This document shows, piece after piece, positions 14,601 to 49,251 of a stretch of 49,251 nt of DNA (its first letter is position 1; each line of letters starts with the position of its first letter). The position numbers were made by a program, and so were the translations under genes. This stretch comes from a virus (Duplodnaviria > Caudoviricetes). The notes beneath the pieces were generated by a model. That model saw only the letters and a program-made list of their open reading frames with translations, was not told the DNA's origin and made no database searches. Where the stretch lies: the IMG/VR virus record IMGVR_UViG_3300010219_000069, positions 1-49,251 of that record; one strand, 5' to 3'.

Positions 14601-15035
14601 GATCGCCATCGCGCCGCCGGCGATGAGCAGCGAGGAGCCGATCGAGGCGGCCGTGCCGGTCAGGCCGATCGCGCCCATGGCCCACGGCGCGAGCGCGGTG
14701 AGGGCCACCATGGCGACGATGGCGCCGATGCTCTTGGCCGTAGAGCCGCCGTTGCCGCCCATGCCGCCGAGGGGGCGGGAGAGGAACACCACATTGTCGT
14801 TGGCCGCCAGCCGATGGGTCGCCCATTCGGTGCGGGAGTAATAGACCCCATTGACCTTGCAGACCGTCGGCAGGTCGAACCGCCAGCCGGTCTCCGCGAG
14901 GACCTGCTCGATGGTCGGCCTGCGCTTCCTCGTCTTGTGCTCGGCAATGGGGAGCACGAGCCCGCTCTCAGGCAGGCGAACGTCGTCGCGCTCCGGGTCG
15001 AAGACCAGGAGGTTATGCTTGATGGCGAGTTTCAT
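11688..15035 (-). CDS. Tail tip / host-specificity protein (TipJ-like, with fused gpI-like N-terminus)
   Basis: 1115 aa; NQARPLQPIPVLYG motif, FN3-like region, C-terminal DUF1983-like FIADGSINATQI; follows NlpC/P60. Confidence 0.85.
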   Translation of the reverse strand: MKLAIKHNLLVFDPERDDVRLPESGLVLPIAEHKTRKRRPTIEQVLAETGWRFDLPTVCKVNGVYYSRTEWATHRLAANDNVVFLSRPLGGMGGNGGSTAKSIGAIVAMVALTALAPWAMGAIGLTGTAASIGSSLLIAGGAMAISHFLKPKAGGQTAEKDELYSFGFGGNQARPLQPIPVLYGRTLSFPDFVAPKYSEYDGDNMTEYALLCLTCGKADVEELRIADTRIWTKSGGYNPSFPGIRIQICDPGEKVTLFPVNVVTASEVSGIELTTNFTSGFTANAAGTEALSLLVDFIFPSGCFWSWKGEVRAVTVGVEVQTRPVNAAGAPTGPWSTAWSKNYTYAKQSQIRITERIDIPNGRFEVRARRTTTPINDQPQDPRLGGSDQIVWSALRAQIDGPNSFPRVTTIAIRAKASEALQGIMNGQVGVVATRKIPVWNGSAFVEQASRSIAWAALDMWRNADYGAGLPLDQVDFQSFVAYDQLWASLGHTFDHTFKEPQTLDDALETILKAGRAMPAPVGDRLTIVRDEPRGIPRMMFTDYDIVKDSLTIDYTLADDDIADGIVGEYIDETTFRLAEVSSAPTGTTLAKPARVQLPGVSKRAQAVGLVRFMAGENALRRATVSWTARAEGRLLKRGDLVVLSCEEPETWGQSAEVVAYDDATRQITFDHDLDWDETAANHYVEVRRRDGQPWGPVRVTRGASDRIAIVNAGDMAAEATRQGMNLADAVARSDLADLPTAAFSPGQPRTFRVLITEGTPDTDGEHIALSGVVDDPAVYDVTETGFEPLPDIPDVFSSSIPVVTTLAATVYQRGTNLILQAGWQPAKGAVSYIADVSYDGGATWVRAYEGDRTTFEAIVASAKTVWLRVAGITSANVTGAFSVVIVNAPTLVLSNDFLIMKVQADDFIPDLARKLDSLDILDQIADLAGEGRLVAEEATDLGRAAIKQVAEVQVTADKALAIFGTDVVAEFDGNGITVGERFTAVANVTGQLIGAWNVVIDSGGYFAGLQLVGAIGPGGFQSELKIAVDDFLIGAPGAGFGEEAVFAVSTRNGVARVTMRGDFIADGSINATQINVEALSAISANIGTVSSSRDVTTAGGFRLDGPNRRIEIWG

Positions 15036-31609: not shown

Positions 31610-32230
31610 TCAGGCAGCTAGGGTTTCAAGCTTCTCGAAGACGTTTGTCAACAAGAGCTTCTCGCCTTCCACAAGACCTGAGTGGATCGCCGGAAAATGG
31701 CCGAGGACTTCGCCCTTATACCAGAGGGCGGCGACGAGATTGCCCCGCAACTTGTCGGCAAACCGTTGGAGTTGCTTCACACTGAACGGGCCCATGACGC
31801 GATAGAAGGGGCGATCCCGAACCATACGGGCGTCATAGACGACCTCCCTTCCCTCCTCGTCCCTGGCAGTGAACGGCTGATCGCCAGCAACGACCCGGTC
31901 GTGATAGGCCCAAAGCTCCTGATGGCCGCATTTGCCGGGATCGACACCGACGAAGAGATAGCCTGCCGCCGGACGCTTACCGACCTCGTACACTCTGCCG
32001 CGCCGCCTTACGAGGTCCGGCTCTACCGGCCTATAGGTGACAAATCCGGCTTGCTCTAAGCCTTGCTGCACCTTTGCTTCAGCCTGGGAGTTGACGCGCA
32101 CGACGTACCATTTGCGGCTCTCGTCAATGACGACCTTGAGGCGTTCCAGGCGGATGAAGTGCGTGGGCGTCACCTTCGGCGTCTCAAGCCGATGGCGGGT
32201 GTGCTTCTTGCGGCGGTTCTTCTTAGCCAT
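31610..32230 (-). CDS. NusG-family (NGN domain) antiterminator at the Q position
   Basis: KWYVVRVNSQAEAKV...L...GF..YRP...PAAGYLFV NGN signature; last gene before the late operon. Confidence 0.82.
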   Translation of the reverse strand: MAKKNRRKKHTRHRLETPKVTPTHFIRLERLKVVIDESRKWYVVRVNSQAEAKVQQGLEQAGFVTYRPVEPDLVRRRGRVYEVGKRPAAGYLFVGVDPGKCGHQELWAYHDRVVAGDQPFTARDEEGREVVYDARMVRDRPFYRVMGPFSVKQLQRFADKLRGNLVAALWYKGEVLGHFPAIHSGLVEGEKLLLTNVFEKLETLAA

Positions 32231-35056: not shown

Positions 35057-35511
35057 CGCACCTCCGTGAACTTCACGCGCAAGCAGCCCCAGCCGTTCAG
35101 GGTCTCGACGGCATCCTTGAAGGTGTCCACGACTGCATGGGGGATGCCATTCTTGCGGCAGAAGGCGGCGAAGGCTTCCTGATCGTCGTTCAGCCCCTCG
35201 CCTGCCCGCTTGAGCTCCAGCGCATGGAAGAGGCCCTGAGGAGACACCAGCTGGAAATCAGGCCAGCCCGCCTTGAGACCCATCCGCTTGAGCTTGGCTC
35301 CGGTCTTGTCATCCCGCAGCTCGCCGGCTGGAAAATGGGTGTAGCGCCAATCGGCATGGCAGAAGTCCTTGAGGAACTTCGCGACCGAGAAGTGCAGCGC
35401 GATCTCTTTCCGGGCCGGGATCTGGTCGGCCGTGACCACCTTGCCCGTGAACAGAGGCAGGCGCGGCTTGGGAGCCTTACTCGTGCGCGTGCACGTGCGA
35501 GGGGCTGCCAT
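35053..35511 (-). CDS. VRR-NUC domain nuclease / resolvase
   Basis: LKRMGLKAGWPD...LELKR...L.DDQ. Confidence 0.85.
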   Translation of the reverse strand: MAAPRTCTRTSKAPKPRLPLFTGKVVTADQIPARKEIALHFSVAKFLKDFCHADWRYTHFPAGELRDDKTGAKLKRMGLKAGWPDFQLVSPQGLFHALELKRAGEGLNDDQEAFAAFCRKNGIPHAVVDTFKDAVETLNGWGCLRVKFTEVR

Positions 35512-35771
35512 CAGATCATCCCCAGCGCTTGCATGTAGGTTCCGAGGATGGCGTCCTCTTCCTGGCGCTCAGCTACGTCCTTGCGGCGGATCGCAACGAT
35601 CTTCTTGATCGCCCTGGTATCAAAGCCGCAGCCCTTGGCCTCGGCATAGATATCGCGCTTGTCGCCGTTCAGGCCCTTGATCTCTTCCTCGACGCGCTCG
35701 ATGCGCTCCACGAAGGCACGGAGTTGATCGGCGGCAACGGACTCGGTGTTGAATGCTTGATCGTCCATCAC
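35511..35771 (-). CDS. gapR: GapR-like nucleoid-associated protein (DUF2312/UPF0335)
   Basis: [17 protein letters not shown]......[11 protein letters not shown]......IVAIR.......EE..IL..Y..ALG. Confidence 0.9.
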
Positions 35772-41499: not shown

Positions 41500-42228
41500 A
41501 TGACCGCCGCTATTGCCACCATTGGCCACAACAACCCGCCTGAGCCCACTCCATTCGAGAGGGCAGAGGCGCAGATTATCGCCCTGTTTGACGAGGCCAA
41601 GAACTGGCTCGATGGCGAAGGCATCACGTCCCAGGCGCAGGCCGACGACGTGTCCAAACTGCTGGATATGATCCGCAAAGCCAAGAAGGCTGCCGACGAG
41701 GCACGGGCTGAAGAAAAGCGCCCGTACGACGAGGCCGCGAAGGAGGTTCAGGAGCGTTATAAGCCCCTCCTGACCCGTTGCGACCTAGCAGCTGATGCCG
41801 CCAAGAAGGCACTGGCGCCATACCTCGCGAAGATCGAAGCCGAGAAGCGGGCCAAGGCTGAAGCCGCTCGCCGCGAAGCTGAGGAGAAGGCACGTGCCGC
41901 ACAGGAAGCCATCCGTGCGGCGGCTCTGACCGACCTTGCCGCTCGCGAGAAGGCCGAAGCCCTCATTCAGGATGCCAAGAAGGCCGACGCTGCCGCGAAG
42001 CGCGCCGAGAACGACAAGGCGCACGCCAAGGGCGGGAGCCGGGCTGTCGGTCTGCGGACGACGTACCGGCCCGTAATGACGGACGGTCGCGAAGCAGCAC
42101 GGCACTACTGGATCGAGCGCCGCGCCGACGTGGAGGCATTCTTCCTCTCGCTCGCAGAGAAGGACGTGAACGCCGGAAAGAGATCCATCCCGGGCTTTGA
42201 AATCATCGAAGAGAAGGTGGCCGTCTGA
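41500..42228 (+). CDS. Coiled-coil recombination-module protein
   Basis: IGHNNPP start, Ala/Glu/Lys coiled coil, C-terminal IPGFEIIEE. Confidence 0.7.
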   Translation: MTAAIATIGHNNPPEPTPFERAEAQIIALFDEAKNWLDGEGITSQAQADDVSKLLDMIRKAKKAADEARAEEKRPYDEAAKEVQERYKPLLTRCDLAADAAKKALAPYLAKIEAEKRAKAEAARREAEEKARAAQEAIRAAALTDLAAREKAEALIQDAKKADAAAKRAENDKAHAKGGSRAVGLRTTYRPVMTDGREAARHYWIERRADVEAFFLSLAEKDVNAGKRSIPGFEIIEEKVAV

Positions 42229-42890
42229 TGAACCCCGCTGACAAGAAGATTGCTGAGGTTCTGGCGAAGTTCGATGAGCCGATGGCCGGCAATGTCTGGC
42301 GCGTTCAGGGCACGGCGGTGATCTACCACAAGACGCTCGAGCGGATCGCTGCATCCGCCAAGATCGCCTTTGACGAGCCGAAGATCATTCGCGCCGAACG
42401 CGATGAGGCGGTCATTCAGGTGACCGGCCGCATGGGAGACCGGGTTGAGTGGTCCATTGGCGAGGCACTGATCGGCGTCAACTACCGCGTTTCCGGCAAG
42501 CAGGCAGCCTATGTGTACGCTATGGCTGAGAAGCGCGCCAAGGATCGGGTGATCCTCAAACTCATCGAGCTTTCTGGCGACGTGTATTCGGAAGAGGAAG
42601 CAGACGAGTTCAAACAGGGCCGGCCGGGCAATGGCGAGGAGCAGCCCCAACAGGAACGGCAGCCGGCCAATGATCGACCTGTAGACCCGAACTCATCGGC
42701 CGGCATCGAAGCTGACATCAAGGCGAAGATCGACAAGGCCAAGACCATCAATGCCGTCACGGATTTGATGCTCCATGCCGACACGCAGAAGTCCCTCGCC
42801 TATTTGGCTGAAGGCATCCGTGACCAGATCCGAGACTATGCCAAGCAGCGTCTCGTTGCCCTTGGCTGGCCGACGAAGCAGGCAGGTTGA
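42228..42890 (+). CDS. Candidate single-strand annealing protein
   Basis: SIGEA...YVYAMAEKRAKDRVILKL...VYSEEEADEF; position in the recombination module. Confidence 0.5.
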   Translation: MNPADKKIAEVLAKFDEPMAGNVWRVQGTAVIYHKTLERIAASAKIAFDEPKIIRAERDEAVIQVTGRMGDRVEWSIGEALIGVNYRVSGKQAAYVYAMAEKRAKDRVILKLIELSGDVYSEEEADEFKQGRPGNGEEQPQQERQPANDRPVDPNSSAGIEADIKAKIDKAKTINAVTDLMLHADTQKSLAYLAEGIRDQIRDYAKQRLVALGWPTKQAG

Positions 42891-43342
42891 CCATGAGCGA
42901 CCTCGACGCACGTTCCTTCGTCAAGCGCCAAGGCAGGCTCGTTCCGGCCGATATCATGGCTGACGAGCTGCTCGGCGGCATCCCTGAGGGCCGCGAGGTG
43001 CTGGTCAGCATCCGGCGCCCTCGAAACCCAAAGCATCATCGACTGCTCTTCGCCCTGCTCCGGAAGGTGCGGGACAACAGTGACCAATGGGACAGTGACC
43101 AGGCGCTCCTTGATGATCTGAAACTCGCCACGGGGCTCTTCGAGACACGGGTCAACCTCGTGACTAAGAAGGCCTACGCAGTCCCTGGATCCATCAGCTT
43201 CGCCAGCATGAGCCAAGATCAGTTCCGCGTGTGGTTCGATCAGGTGCTTGTGGTGCTGGCGACGAACGTCCTCGGCTGCATGACGGAGGAACTGAGAGCT
43301 GAAATCATGGAGATGGTTGAGCCGTCGCGGAGGGTCGCATGA
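42887..43342 (+). CDS. DUF1367 / NinB-like protein
   Basis: RPRNPKHHRLLFALL...PGSISFASMSQDQF. Confidence 0.78.
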   Translation: MTMSDLDARSFVKRQGRLVPADIMADELLGGIPEGREVLVSIRRPRNPKHHRLLFALLRKVRDNSDQWDSDQALLDDLKLATGLFETRVNLVTKKAYAVPGSISFASMSQDQFRVWFDQVLVVLATNVLGCMTEELRAEIMEMVEPSRRVA

Positions 43343-43716
43343 CAGAAGATGTCGGCACCACTCCCCGCAAGCCGCTCACACCTACCCAGCGCCTGAAGCT
43401 CTTCGAGGCATTCCAGGGTCGCTGCGTCCTCTGCGATCGCAAGATCGAGGCAGGCGAGCCGTGGATTGACGAGCACCTTCGCGCCCTCGGTCTCGGCGGG
43501 ACGAACGCAGCAGAGAACCGCGGCCCGGCTCACAAGGCCTGCGCTGATCTGAAGACCCACGGCAAGGACGGCGACCTTGCGCGGATTGCCAAGGCCAAGC
43601 GCGTGAAGATGCGCCATCTGGGCATCCGGCAGCGCAAAGGCCCGCCAATCCCCGGCAGCAAGGACTCGCCATGGAAGCGGAAGATGGATGGCACGCTTGA
43701 GCGGAGGTCGAAGTGA
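43339..43716 (+). CDS. HNH endonuclease (early region)
   Basis: GRCVLC...W..EH...L.LGG....N..PAH..C...KT; WKRKMDG tail. Confidence 0.8.
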   Translation: MTEDVGTTPRKPLTPTQRLKLFEAFQGRCVLCDRKIEAGEPWIDEHLRALGLGGTNAAENRGPAHKACADLKTHGKDGDLARIAKAKRVKMRHLGIRQRKGPPIPGSKDSPWKRKMDGTLERRSK

Positions 43717-44559: not shown

Positions 44560-44834
44560 TGTCTAAACGCATCGTAGAAGTCACATTCAACGTTGAAGTT
44601 GAGATGGACGACAGCAAGTTCACGCCGGAGTTCATGGAGGAGTTCCGCGAAACCTTCTTCCGGTTTGAGACACTCGACGAGCACGCAGAGCACTTGGCTT
44701 GGCTCGCTGTCCGTGAGCGTCTTGATGAGAACTTCACCGAAGGATACGGCCCGTTGAACGACATGGGCATCAAAGTCACCGTCCGCGACGATGTATTGAC
44801 GGTTGGCGTCGTAGAGACGGAGTCCACCCCATGA
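44559..44834 (+). CDS. Acidic hypothetical protein
   Basis: MSKRIVEV...FTPEFMEEF...EGYG; coupled. Confidence 0.7.
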   Translation: MSKRIVEVTFNVEVEMDDSKFTPEFMEEFRETFFRFETLDEHAEHLAWLAVRERLDENFTEGYGPLNDMGIKVTVRDDVLTVGVVETESTP

Positions 44835-46621
44835 CACACTCCAAGGACTTTGGCGAGAAGAGGAGGGCGGAAGAGGGATATGTGCCCTCCGTCGCTTCTG
44901 ACGAAGCTCCTCGGGAAAGCTCAATGGCAGGCGAGGCCAGTCGCTATGTCGCGCCGCCTAATCTGCCGCGCGTCCCGATCCGCTTCATGCGCCCGGTCGG
45001 CGATACCTTCAAGGATATGCAGCGCCACGCCCAACAAAGCGAACTCTACAAGATCGGGGACGCGATCCTAGTGTGGGTCAACGAGGGCGACTTCTGGATG
45101 AATTTCCCGGTCGAGTTCCCGCAGCCTAGCGTCAGCGATGAGCAGCCGAAGGCCGAAGACCCGAAGGGTCTGAGTGGCGAAGCCATGCCAGCGCGGTCGG
45201 CGTCAGCCGAGACGCCCTCCTCCCCCGCACCCGACAGCGGAGAGGTGGAGAAGCTGATTGAGGGCTTCCAGGCCTGGATGACAATTGAGGAGGCAGAGTT
45301 CGCTAAGAATAATCTGCGCTCCGCCCTCGCCTCATACCAGAAGAAGGTCGAGGAACAGGCAGAGCGCATCAAGGAATTGGAAGACCTATTTGACCTCCGT
45401 CACGAGGCGGATATGCGAGCCATTAAGGAGTGGCAGGAAGTCACAGGCCAGACGCTTACATGGCCTGATCATGCCGACTTGTGCGTGTTCCTCATGACCG
45501 CGCTCTCGCTTGAAGCGCAAAACAAGGAAGCCGCCGAGAAGAGGGTCGAGGAACTGACGGCAGAGCGGGATGAGGCGGATCACGTTCTCAATGAGGAGCG
45601 CGAGCGGAACCTCGCGAATGTCAAAACGTGGGTGGCGCAGCTTCAAGCAGGTAGCGACACCATCGCATCCCTCACCACCCGCCTCGATAGCATGAAGAAG
45701 GCGCTGAAATCCGCCTTGTATTGGGGCGACCGCATTCGCACCGTTCAGAAGAACCTTGGTCAGATCGCACATGAAGCAGCTTCATACGCTCACTGCGACG
45801 ACCCCAGCGCATGGCGAGACATGAAGTACATTCACGAACTGGCGACAGAAGCCAACGATGAACTGGAGGCTCTTAGCGTCAGCGATGTCCGCCGCGAAGC
45901 GGGCGAGACCGTAGGGCTCGATCCGAAGGACGACAGCGCGGTGCCCGCAGGGCAGACGCCCTCTCCCCCTCCCGCCTCCGAAGGGGATGAGGTGGAGGGG
46001 GTGATTGCCCGCCTGAAACTCAATGCCGCGAACACGTATGCCAGGATTAAGCCGCAAGGCTTCACCGGCACGATCGAAGATACGACAGACTGGCAAGCCG
46101 CCACTCTCCTCACCCGCCTCAAGCAGGAGCGGGACGACTATGAGAGGCTTTTCGCTGAGATCCATCAGATGCGGGATCATTGGCAGGACGAAGCACTGCG
46201 AGCGCATGAACGCGCCGAAGCCCTCCAGGCCGAGGGAGAGAAGCTGCGGAATGAGCTTGATGCTCTCGCGTCCAGCCACCGCGATTTAGGCCGCCGTCTT
46301 GCAGACATGGGTGAGGAGAACACCGCCCTCCAGGCCGAGAATGAGAGGCTGAAGGAGGAGATACGTCGTCACGAACGTGGCGAGGATGAAGGGTATCAAA
46401 CAGCCCTCCAAGAAATCGCCACCCTCACCGCTCGCCTCGATAGCATGACGAAGGCGCTGGAGCCGTTCAAGCGGCAAGCAGATGAGTGGGATGTGCACGA
46501 CTGGATGCATGATGATGTCCAGATTGTCTGCACCTTGGCTGCTGGTCAGCCGACACACATCACAGCAGGCGATTTCCGCCGTGCCCGCGCCGCCCTCAAT
46601 CCCAAGGGAGAGAGCAAGTGA
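44831..46621 (+). CDS. Large mosaic coiled-coil early protein (Ead/Ea22-like position) with internal repeats
   Basis: 596 aa; repeated IA(S/T)LT(T/A)RLDSM(K/T)KAL and ALQAE; two embedded hairpin elements; ends FRRARAAL. Confidence 0.7.
   Translation: MTHSKDFGEKRRAEEGYVPSVASDEAPRESSMAGEASRYVAPPNLPRVPIRFMRPVGDTFKDMQRHAQQSELYKIGDAILVWVNEGDFWMNFPVEFPQPSVSDEQPKAEDPKGLSGEAMPARSASAETPSSPAPDSGEVEKLIEGFQAWMTIEEAEFAKNNLRSALASYQKKVEEQAERIKELEDLFDLRHEADMRAIKEWQEVTGQTLTWPDHADLCVFLMTALSLEAQNKEAAEKRVEELTAERDEADHVLNEERERNLANVKTWVAQLQAGSDTIASLTTRLDSMKKALKSALYWGDRIRTVQKNLGQIAHEAASYAHCDDPSAWRDMKYIHELATEANDELEALSVSDVRREAGETVGLDPKDDSAVPAGQTPSPPPASEGDEVEGVIARLKLNAANTYARIKPQGFTGTIEDTTDWQAATLLTRLKQERDDYERLFAEIHQMRDHWQDEALRAHERAEALQAEGEKLRNELDALASSHRDLGRRLADMGEENTALQAENERLKEEIRRHERGEDEGYQTALQEIATLTARLDSMTKALEPFKRQADEWDVHDWMHDDVQIVCTLAAGQPTHITAGDFRRARAALNPKGESK
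45127..45219 (+). repeat. Four-hairpin structured element, copy 1
   Basis: TAGCGTCAGCGATG..gccGAAggc..gacccGAAgggtc..tggcGAAgcca..CAGCGCGGT cggcGTCAgccg AGACGCCCTC. Confidence 0.8.
45874..45963 (+). repeat. Four-hairpin structured element, copy 2
   Basis: TAGCGTCAGCGATG..ccgcGAAgcgg..cgagaccGTAgggctcg..tccGAAgga..CAGCGCGGT gcccGCAgggc AGACGCCCTC. Confidence 0.8.
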
Positions 46622-47975: not shown

Positions 47976-48224
47976 ATGGGACAGGCTGAGCGTTCCCGAT
48001 TGCTCACTCGTGAAGAAGCCGCGGCTCACTGTAAGCTGAGCCCGTCAGGCTTCTCAAGGTGGGTAGCCCAAGGGAGGCTGCCCAAGCCCCTCCCCGGCAC
48101 GCGCCGCTGGGACGCAAGGGCTATCGACCGGGCACTGGACAGGCTTTCCGGCTTATCCGACTCTGAGGCGGGACAAAGCGCCTATGAGCGGTGGAGGGCC
48201 GGCCGGAATGCGCGTCATGCTTAA
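47976..48224 (+). CDS. Excisionase (AlpA/MerR-type HTH)
   Basis: LLTREEAAAHCKLS...F..WV..GRLPKP...RRWD; overlaps the integrase start. Confidence 0.8.
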   Translation: MGQAERSRLLTREEAAAHCKLSPSGFSRWVAQGRLPKPLPGTRRWDARAIDRALDRLSGLSDSEAGQSAYERWRAGRNARHA

Positions 48225-49251
48225 AGGGGTTCATCGGGTGCCGCGGAAGCTCGCGGACGGCACCAGGACAACCTATTACTATGCCTGGAGAGGCGGACCA
48301 CGGCTCCGCGGAGAGCCCGGCAGCCCCGAGTTCATCGAGAGCTATCAGGAAGCCCACCGCGGGCGCAAAACCGCCTCTGACGGCACCCTGCACCAGCTCG
48401 TGACGGAGTTCCGCGGCAGCAGCGAGTACAAGGGGCTCTCCGAGCACTCCAAGCGGGCCTATCAGACCTATCTGAACCTGATCGACGCCGAATTCGGGGA
48501 TCTCCCGCTTGAGGCTCTGACGGCGCCCGAGATCCGCGGCGATTTCAAGGCCTGGCGCGACGGCATGGCCGATACGCCGCGGAAAGCAGATTACGCCTGG
48601 ACGGTTCTCGCTCGCGTCCTATCGGTCGCCAAGGACCGCGGACGGATTACCGTCAATCCATGCGAGCGCGGCGGGCGGCTCTACAAGGCGGAACGGGCTG
48701 AAAAGCTCTGGACTGCGGAGCACATCACGCGGTTCATGGATGTCGCGTCGGAGGAACTGCAACTGGCTCTCGTGCTGGCCCTCTGGACGGGACAGAGGCA
48801 GGGCGACCTCCTGCGGCTCCCCTGGTCAGCCTATGACGGCAAAACGATCAAGGTGAAGCAGTCGAAGACCGGTCGCCGTGTCGTGATCCCTGTCGGCCCC
48901 ACGCTGCGCGATCATCTCACCGCGGCGAAGCGCCGAGCCATTACGATCCTCACCAACACCGAGGGCAACACATGGACCTCGGACGGCTTCAGGGCGTCAT
49001 GGGGCAAGGCATGCGAGCGGGCGGAGATTGATGACGTGACCTTCCACGATATCCGCGGCTCCGCGGTGACCCGCTTGGCTCTGGCGGGAGCCAGCGTACC
49101 TGAGATTGCGTCTCTGACGGGGCATTCGTTGAAGGATGTCGAGGTCATCTTGGACACCCATTATTTGGGCCGCGATGTGAAACTTGCAGAGGCCGCGATG
49201 AGAAAACGCGAGAGGAAGGAAAAGCGAACGAAGTCTGTAAAACAAGTGTAA
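48208..49251 (+). CDS. int: Tyrosine integrase
   Basis: TGQRQGDL (R), QSKT (K), FHDIR (HxxR), TGH and HYL (Y) catalytic residues. Confidence 0.96.
   Translation: MRVMLKGVHRVPRKLADGTRTTYYYAWRGGPRLRGEPGSPEFIESYQEAHRGRKTASDGTLHQLVTEFRGSSEYKGLSEHSKRAYQTYLNLIDAEFGDLPLEALTAPEIRGDFKAWRDGMADTPRKADYAWTVLARVLSVAKDRGRITVNPCERGGRLYKAERAEKLWTAEHITRFMDVASEELQLALVLALWTGQRQGDLLRLPWSAYDGKTIKVKQSKTGRRVVIPVGPTLRDHLTAAKRRAITILTNTEGNTWTSDGFRASWGKACERAEIDDVTFHDIRGSAVTRLALAGASVPEIASLTGHSLKDVEVILDTHYLGRDVKLAEAAMRKRERKEKRTKSVKQV

Follow-up and report, generated by a model that had tools for sequence, protein, structure and literature searches.

A duplicated element in a lambdoid provirus is one of a widespread family, apparently not described before, of predicted branched DNA folds that are candidate single-strand initiation signals

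The stretch of DNA analysed here (the window; positions 1 to 49,251 of IMG/VR record IMGVR_UViG_3300010219_000069, 49,251 nucleotides) is a provirus that is about 90% complete and has a lambdoid layout, running from the repressor through the early operon to the integrase. The features around the element under study are as follows.

41500..43716, plus strand: genes for recombination, farther upstream in the early operon (exonuclease, NinB-like and HNH; PHROGs)
44831..46621, plus strand: mosaic ORF of 596 amino acids whose frame stays open across type C and both copies of the element
44882..44959, minus strand: type C, a distinct conserved hairpin element (nhmmer), back-to-back with copy 1 across a gap of about 168 nt
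45127..45217, plus strand: element copy 1 (sequence, DNA fold, 76 bits with covariance model R1), made up of an outer stem (P1), an inner stem (P2) and its extension, a four-way junction with P3a, P3b and P3c, hairpin P4 and a conserved CGCCC at the 3' end
45219..45260, plus strand: C-rich/G-rich block (repeat D10) after copy 1, found again after copy 2 (45966-46007, 71% identical)
45662..45706, plus strand: repeated block (repeat D5) with its partner at 46415-46459 (89% identical, spacing 753 bp)
45874..45961, plus strand: element copy 2, with the architecture of copy 1 and different stems (DNA fold, 75 bits with model R1)
48184..49251, plus strand: integrase, the last gene of the early operon

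The ORF at 44831-46621 includes a stretch of about 750 bp that is repeated in tandem. It matched no protein family except for weak coiled-coil matches, its N-terminal 88 amino acids are weakly similar to Caulobacter phage proteins, and comparison of the gene with annotated phages (blastn and tblastn) gave no match over the element. Elsewhere in the window, a NusG-family gene (PF02357, E = 4e-8; 31610-32230, minus strand), likely a late antiterminator, is the last gene of the replication operon, and a GapR-like gene lies at 35511-35771.

An earlier note on this DNA, made from the sequence alone, described the two copies as lying 747 bp apart in one frame of an early gene, with three shared linkers and with four hairpins whose stems differ between the copies yet still pair. 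All of this was seen in the sequence, where the gene is this ORF and the distance equals 249 codons, as were the seven C-GNA-G loops and the one C-GTCA-G loop that it had counted. The closure of the element by GCGTC and GACGC was present in the DNA fold of both copies (z = -3.35 and -1.69); however, the single multi-way junction proposed with it was not, because an inner stem (GCG/CGC with its extension) had been overlooked, and this stem gives the element two junctions, one three-way and one four-way. Three or more C-GN(N)A-G mini-hairpins per 80 nt occur at only two places on both strands of the 49 kb window, and these are the two copies. The strong matches of model R1 in the window were likewise confined to the copies (76 and 75 bits, both copies being part of its training set), and the next best match scored 15.6 bits. 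The 13-mer linker by itself was not significant at two mismatches, and the significance of the element therefore comes from its fold and its homologues.

The two repeats are members of a widespread and apparently undescribed family of branched elements of about 88 bases. A first, loose pattern built on the linkers gave 121 loci, none of which was judged real. Tighter patterns gave eight real loci among 32, and 27 real loci among another 32; the other five (L158, L168, L171, L173 and L181) were set aside as chance matches, and two of the 27 were weak (L155 and L163, 29.9 bits) and were excluded from the counts of instances, orientations, frames and flanks. A related element on the opposite strand in L153 supplied a further pattern, which gave 115 viral loci and at least 123 bacterial genome loci; among the 80 bacterial genome loci listed, most were from Alphaproteobacteria and some from Pseudomonas. 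A structural descriptor in the form of a regular expression was dropped as too unspecific. From 96 non-redundant copies, 60 were picked for their complete ends and aligned with MAFFT, and model R1 was built from the alignment. Matches to R1 numbered 190 in 100 loci, 104 in 87 loci and 58 in 26 loci, with 310 distinct sequences. Thus homologues with covarying stems, for which the earlier note had proposed a covariance-model search, were found. They comprise no fewer than 310 distinct sequences that share a single predicted fold and come from tailed phages, from small phages with single-stranded DNA and, in conjugative plasmids such as F, from the region that is transferred first. Its statement that the element is not a named family was also borne out, since no covariance model of Rfam 15 came near its gathering score over any element, and the open-access literature searched held no description of the two-junction structure. 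In genome loci from Hyphomonadaceae, Rhodoplanes and Hyphomicrobium (L301-L380), several copies lie beside defence and toxin-antitoxin genes (SIR2, Cap4, OLD, Shedu, BrnT and RelE), and extra bases are common in the P3b and P4 loops of these copies.

In the consensus fold, the outer 5-bp stem P1, the 3-bp stem P2 and hairpin P4 meet in a three-way junction. P2 is extended by an A-G mismatch, an invariant T-A pair, a bulge or a tandem G-A pair, and a closing pair, from which P3a, P3b and P3c emerge with practically no unpaired bases to form a Holliday-like four-way junction. The element has a G+C content of about 70%, its core bases are near-invariant, and 185 of 276 copies have CGCCC as their 3' end. 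In the alignment of 60 copies, which was made independently of structure, 90.2% of 1732 cells were paired, with 324 two-sided changes; part of P3a had been set by the search pattern. None of 500 shuffles reached 90.2%, and slid controls gave 32-42%. In a second set of 58 matches, whose alignment was fitted to the model and which overlaps earlier contigs, 93.7% of the cells were paired.

The pairs and loops point to DNA rather than RNA as the folding strand. Among 7774 pair cells, 7282 were Watson-Crick, 81 G-T, 55 A-C and 210 G-A. With the pattern-fixed hairpin left out of the loop counts, there were 451 GNA triloops (46 in shuffles), 103 GNYA loops (18.5 in shuffles) and 150 GNRA loops (26 in shuffles), the last two being equally enriched, and four UUCG loops. 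Since G-T is nearly as rare as A-C, G-A is favoured and GNA triloops are enriched 10-fold, the fold is DNA-like. According to the accessible text of PMC13037366, mini-hairpins of the GNA type are far stabler as DNA, are nuclease-resistant and bind SSB poorly, and are present at the G4 origin, RSF1010 ssiA and the N4 promoters. At least 80% of the consensus pairs were recovered in 99 of 276 copies folded as DNA, in 5 of 276 folded as RNA and in 19 of 276 folded as the reverse-complement DNA, so that in this computational test the fold was specific to one DNA strand. With DNA parameters the two window copies fell into one shared fold, and with RNA parameters their folds differed. These results support the cis-acting single-stranded DNA device suggested in the earlier note and argue against the put-like RNA antiterminator of the early transcript that it listed among its candidates. 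Both window copies are in the sense orientation relative to the early operon, as such an antiterminator would be, but the family has no G-U preference, 41 of 85 copies within ORFs are antisense, and the phage has its NusG-family gene elsewhere; an antiterminator is hardly credible, and we rejected it because there is no conserved RNA fold on the transcribed strand.

The encoded peptide is incidental. The 85 copies within ORFs are 44 sense and 41 antisense and are read in several frames, 89 of 174 copies at phage loci lie outside the ORFs called by a crude gene caller, and the copies of L138 and L145 straddle a stop/start junction. A function at the peptide level was rejected on these observations, which, together with the covariation, uphold the view that the structure of the nucleic acid is what selection maintains.

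Of 122 pairs of adjacent copies in viral loci, 103 are on opposite strands and 19 are on the same strand, these being counts over related phages that are not independent. Seventy pairs are back-to-back, 66 of them spaced by 127-834 bp, and one locus (L224) has up to seven copies within 6 kb. The window copies, which are same-strand neighbours, have the minority arrangement, and no minus-strand copy of the family was found in the window with R1. Type C occupies the position at which related phages have a minus-strand family copy. Its six homologues found with nhmmer (two in L125, and one each in L130, L151, L153 and L179) are all back-to-back with a family copy; one of its hairpins covaries, and it has no R1 match. 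The minus-strand partner in the window appears to have been replaced by the unrelated type C. The window type C has no Rfam match, and type C may be an alternative signal or an antisense RNA. Among 30 loci chosen as single-copy, eight (L190, L195, L204, L225, L234, L237, L250 and L255) have the element 50-250 nt upstream of terS and on the terS strand. Two further single-copy loci (L191 and L192) have it on the coding strand upstream of terL, making 10 of 30 in total, which suggests a role at genome ends in packaging or end duplication. DNA methyltransferase genes recur inside or beside the pairs of elements (L153:1635-2483; L199, L242, L257 and L172), and their ORFs often read through an antisense copy. 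In L123 (1099-1926), adjacent small genes end with a repeated boundary sequence, which is a separate repeat system of module exchange.

Two other readings, which the earlier note had also raised, are now minor rivals. The first is a folded recombination site resembling attC, or a hotspot, that exchanges small gene modules among early phage operons. The copies flank variable cargo of 127-834 bp, many ORFs run from one copy to the next, and the window ORF is a tandem mosaic beside recombination genes and the integrase. However, paired copies are unlike in sequence, microviruses carry just one copy and none of their annotated genes is a recombinase, and no dedicated recombinase recurs among 146 neighbours at genome loci and 213 at phage loci; we regard this reading as improbable. 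The second is a selfish miniature mobile element of the REP or MITE kind that is tolerated in genes since the frames stay open. Its many copies in unrelated insertion contexts, the in-frame read-through in both orientations and the several copies per alphaproteobacterial contig are what such an element would show, whereas the strict strand rules in plasmids and microviruses, the regular alternation in phages and the lack of a recurrent transposase among the scanned neighbours make it a very remote prospect.

All seven Microviridae with the element have one copy in the sequence examined (loci L424, L425, L487, L220, L246, L263/L264 and L461, the last being weak and L246 and L461 being partial sequences), and all seven copies are on the gene strand, which we take to be the virion strand. 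A blastn search of 50,697 phage records matched three microviruses and no more. A further candidate, L488, was rejected as a microvirus because it has no VP1 or VP4 match, and it resembles a fragment of an integrative and conjugative element (ICE). In KT264808, the copy lies directly 3' of the major capsid gene; the minus-strand origins of phiX174 and G4 likewise follow the capsid gene, as described in the accessible part of PMC9865509.

When a copy of the plasmid type was compared together with its flanks, 1384 plasmids matched, including 1267 conjugative ones, although many of these matches were mostly to the flank. Model R1 found two copies each in F and R100, three each in R46 and pWW0, and five within 23 kb of pSX6. 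All 15 share a strand with the template of the ssb, ard, ccg or DUF932 genes of the leading region; in the accessible part of PMC11541004, the template strand of leading-region genes is the first-transferred strand. In bacterial genome loci, where 146 neighbours were scanned, the element is upstream and on the template strand in six of six cases of ardC and three of three of DUF736. With these placements in plasmids and ICEs, the earlier limitation of the device to the non-template strand is not supported. The plasmid copies thus probably lie on the transferred strand, as the microvirus copies probably lie on the virion strand, and these are what we take to be the exposed strands in the two systems. 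In F, both copies terminate the duplicated Frpo repeats, lying 3' of Frpo on the strand of Frpo, and one of them is about 93 nt past the 3' end of the ssiD sequence published in the supplement of PMC11541004 (in its accessible part). Just 5' of the copies of IncN and Pseudomonas plasmids there is a 12-mer that phiX174 has in its F-G intergenic region, at a near-fixed distance from the element (L428, L429, L489, L491, L492, L362, L336 and L315); this 12-mer does not adjoin the phage copies.

The position upstream of the ardC, ssb and ccg operons on the template strand, and within both Frpo repeats of F, could also mean that the element helps early transcription from single-stranded DNA, as a loading site or enhancer for RNA polymerase at promoters of the Frpo or CUP type. 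Against this, the element is about 70% G+C, its consensus lacks any sequence resembling a -10 or -35 box, and it lies outside ssiD; moreover, the copies of microviruses and those that precede terS occupy the coding strand and so cannot template those genes. We consider a transcriptional helper quite unlikely.

The plasmids differ in whether they encode a primase of their own. A Toprim primase domain was present in seven of 14 conjugative plasmids (R64, ColIb-P9, pOXA-48, R751, R27, pRA1 and pCAR1). Strong copies occur in none of these seven and in five of the seven primase-less plasmids (F, R100, R46, pWW0 and pTiC58, the last with 34 bits; Fisher P = 0.010), in a set of plasmids that were hand-picked and are partly related, with four added as a blind test, and in which the contrast is confounded with the MOBF relaxase type. 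Of the other two primase-less plasmids, R388 has two weak copies and R721 has none. The primase-encoding IncP plasmid R751 has a weak, divergent match (22.7 bits; L477, R751 14830-14938), which lies just past the 3' end of trfA and probably near oriV. The provirus itself has no PF13362 Toprim match.

Priming of single-stranded DNA is described in the accessible part of PMC4595007 as taking three routes, namely by host RNA polymerase, by a primase or primosome of the host that acts at a cis site, and by a plasmid primase; host-recruiting sites and plasmid primases are alternatives there. An element that lies on the exposed strand and is absent where a primase is encoded fits the cis site. The factor common to the virion strand of microviruses, the transferred strand in conjugation and the intermediates of phage replication, recombination or packaging is exposed single-stranded DNA that needs copying. 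A single-strand initiation signal of a new type is the most likely identity of the element, and we put the probability that it is a host-primed signal for complementary-strand synthesis at about 0.6; among the candidates of the earlier note, a priming signal is thus the one that best explains the results.

The fold would form once the strand is exposed, that is, on the virion strand of microviruses, on the transferred strand during conjugation and, in double-stranded DNA phages, on strands displaced or resected in replication, recombination and packaging. The mini-hairpins would keep the element folded against SSB, and a host priming complex could then load at the folded element. By elimination, a PriA-type loader that reads the branched structure is the most likely one, a guess based on the lack of promoter boxes, of CTG enrichment and of a DnaA box. 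In detail, no -10/-35-like sequence is found in the element consensus, the primase trinucleotide CTG shows no 3' enrichment (31 of 255 copies have it on that side of the element and 50 of 255 on the other), and none of 255 copies has a DnaA box, whereas the A-site of the ABC-primosome is defined by a DnaA box in its stem. In temperate phages, the back-to-back pairs on opposite strands would prime both strands, with two new chains that cross; the chains primed at ssiA and ssiB of RSF1010 cross each other. Several results speak against priming. The published ssiD fragment with priming activity excludes the element of F, which is about 93 nt outside, and the ssiD assay therefore did not need the element. 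R1 has no match in phiX174, G4, ColE1 or the ssiD and ssiE sites of F. Up to seven copies per 6 kb also seem to exceed the apparent need for priming. Nor do the small number of microviruses matched with blastn and the minority, same-strand arrangement of the window copies favour this reading.

The same placements could be explained by a shield or roadblock, in which the fold keeps off SSB or RecA, halts the progress of exonucleases, helicases or polymerase, or acts as a decoy for defences that sense junctions, and which in plasmids could delay conversion of an adjacent single-stranded DNA promoter. The element lies 3' of Frpo on the same strand, the alternating orientation in phages would protect both strands, the eight terS loci have it near the terminase gene and on the terS strand, and mini-hairpins are nuclease-resistant and poor binders of SSB (PMC13037366, accessible text). 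On the other hand, circular microvirus DNA lacks ends and would gain nothing from a block to copying, and a junction geometry that is fixed, with core bases that hardly vary, implies a specific reader. A shield also does not predict the absence from primase-encoding plasmids, and we consider it unlikely, though it is the least unlikely of the rivals.

As a candidate initiation signal, the element would work like the phiX174 primosome assembly site, the G4 origin, Frpo and the A-site; judging from sequence features, each of those tested being absent, it is not a member of these families. It resembles the PriA-dependent assembly site of phiX174 and ColE1 in being a structured cis-site of single-stranded DNA in an intergenic region of microviruses, after the capsid gene in one case (KT264808), and in having the F-G 12-mer beside some plasmid copies, but it is GC-rich with two junctions and R1 does not match phiX174 or ColE1. 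The DnaG-dependent origin of G4, alpha3 and St-1 also carries several GNA/GNNA mini-hairpins on the virion strand (PMC13037366, accessible text); unlike that origin, the element has its hairpins nested in junctions and has no 3' CTG enrichment, and R1 does not match G4. With Frpo/ssiD of F and ssi1-3 of ColIb-P9 it shares the strand, and in F and R100 both belong to one duplicated repeat. However, the element is about 93 nt outside the ssiD sequence and lacks promoter boxes, and ColIb-P9 has Frpo homologues and no element; identity with Frpo/ssiD or ssiE was ruled out because R1 has no match at those sites and the element is outside ssiD. RSF1010 has two signals on complementary strands, ssiA and ssiB, of which ssiA has a CCGAAGG mini-hairpin (PMC8567376, accessible part), but these are single hairpins of 40 nt read by RepB' of the plasmid itself, a comparison made by description only. 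With regard to the IncN CUP elements (pKM101/R46), R1 matches lie in repeated intergenic blocks upstream of ccg, which are probably the CUP repeats, although CUP is described in the accessible part of PMC6289460 as an ArdK-bound regulatory sequence. Integron attC sites and the DUF1874 motif are, like the element, folded-single-strand candidates that flank ORFs (PMC5737381, accessible part). However, an attC site is a simple hairpin, the element has no integron integrase nearby, neighbouring copies are mostly in opposite orientation, and the element has no Rfam match.

The element is real, widespread and DNA-structured. More tentatively, and with clearly less than even odds in our judgement, this branched fold of single-stranded DNA with its Holliday-like junction may be a start signal common to single-stranded DNA phages, tailed phages, ICEs and F, IncN and IncP-9 plasmids, which recruits the host priming machine by an undescribed route, serving as the in vivo second-strand site in primase-less conjugative plasmids and, when paired, as a hidden two-strand origin inside phage genes. 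In the accessible parts of PMC7690428 and PMC9865509, respectively, in vivo priming from Frpo is presented as undemonstrated and the minus-strand origins of the studied microviruses as uncertain. The family offers a precise candidate of 88 nt, with pairs defined by covariation, in workhorse systems such as F and R46, and the question of where copying starts is now within reach of classical M13 assays and assays in live cells. The element would be a rare natural multi-junction structure of single-stranded DNA, more complex than attC hairpins, and read-through of a DNA device would explain why many early proteins of phages contain 'linker' peptides of low complexity.
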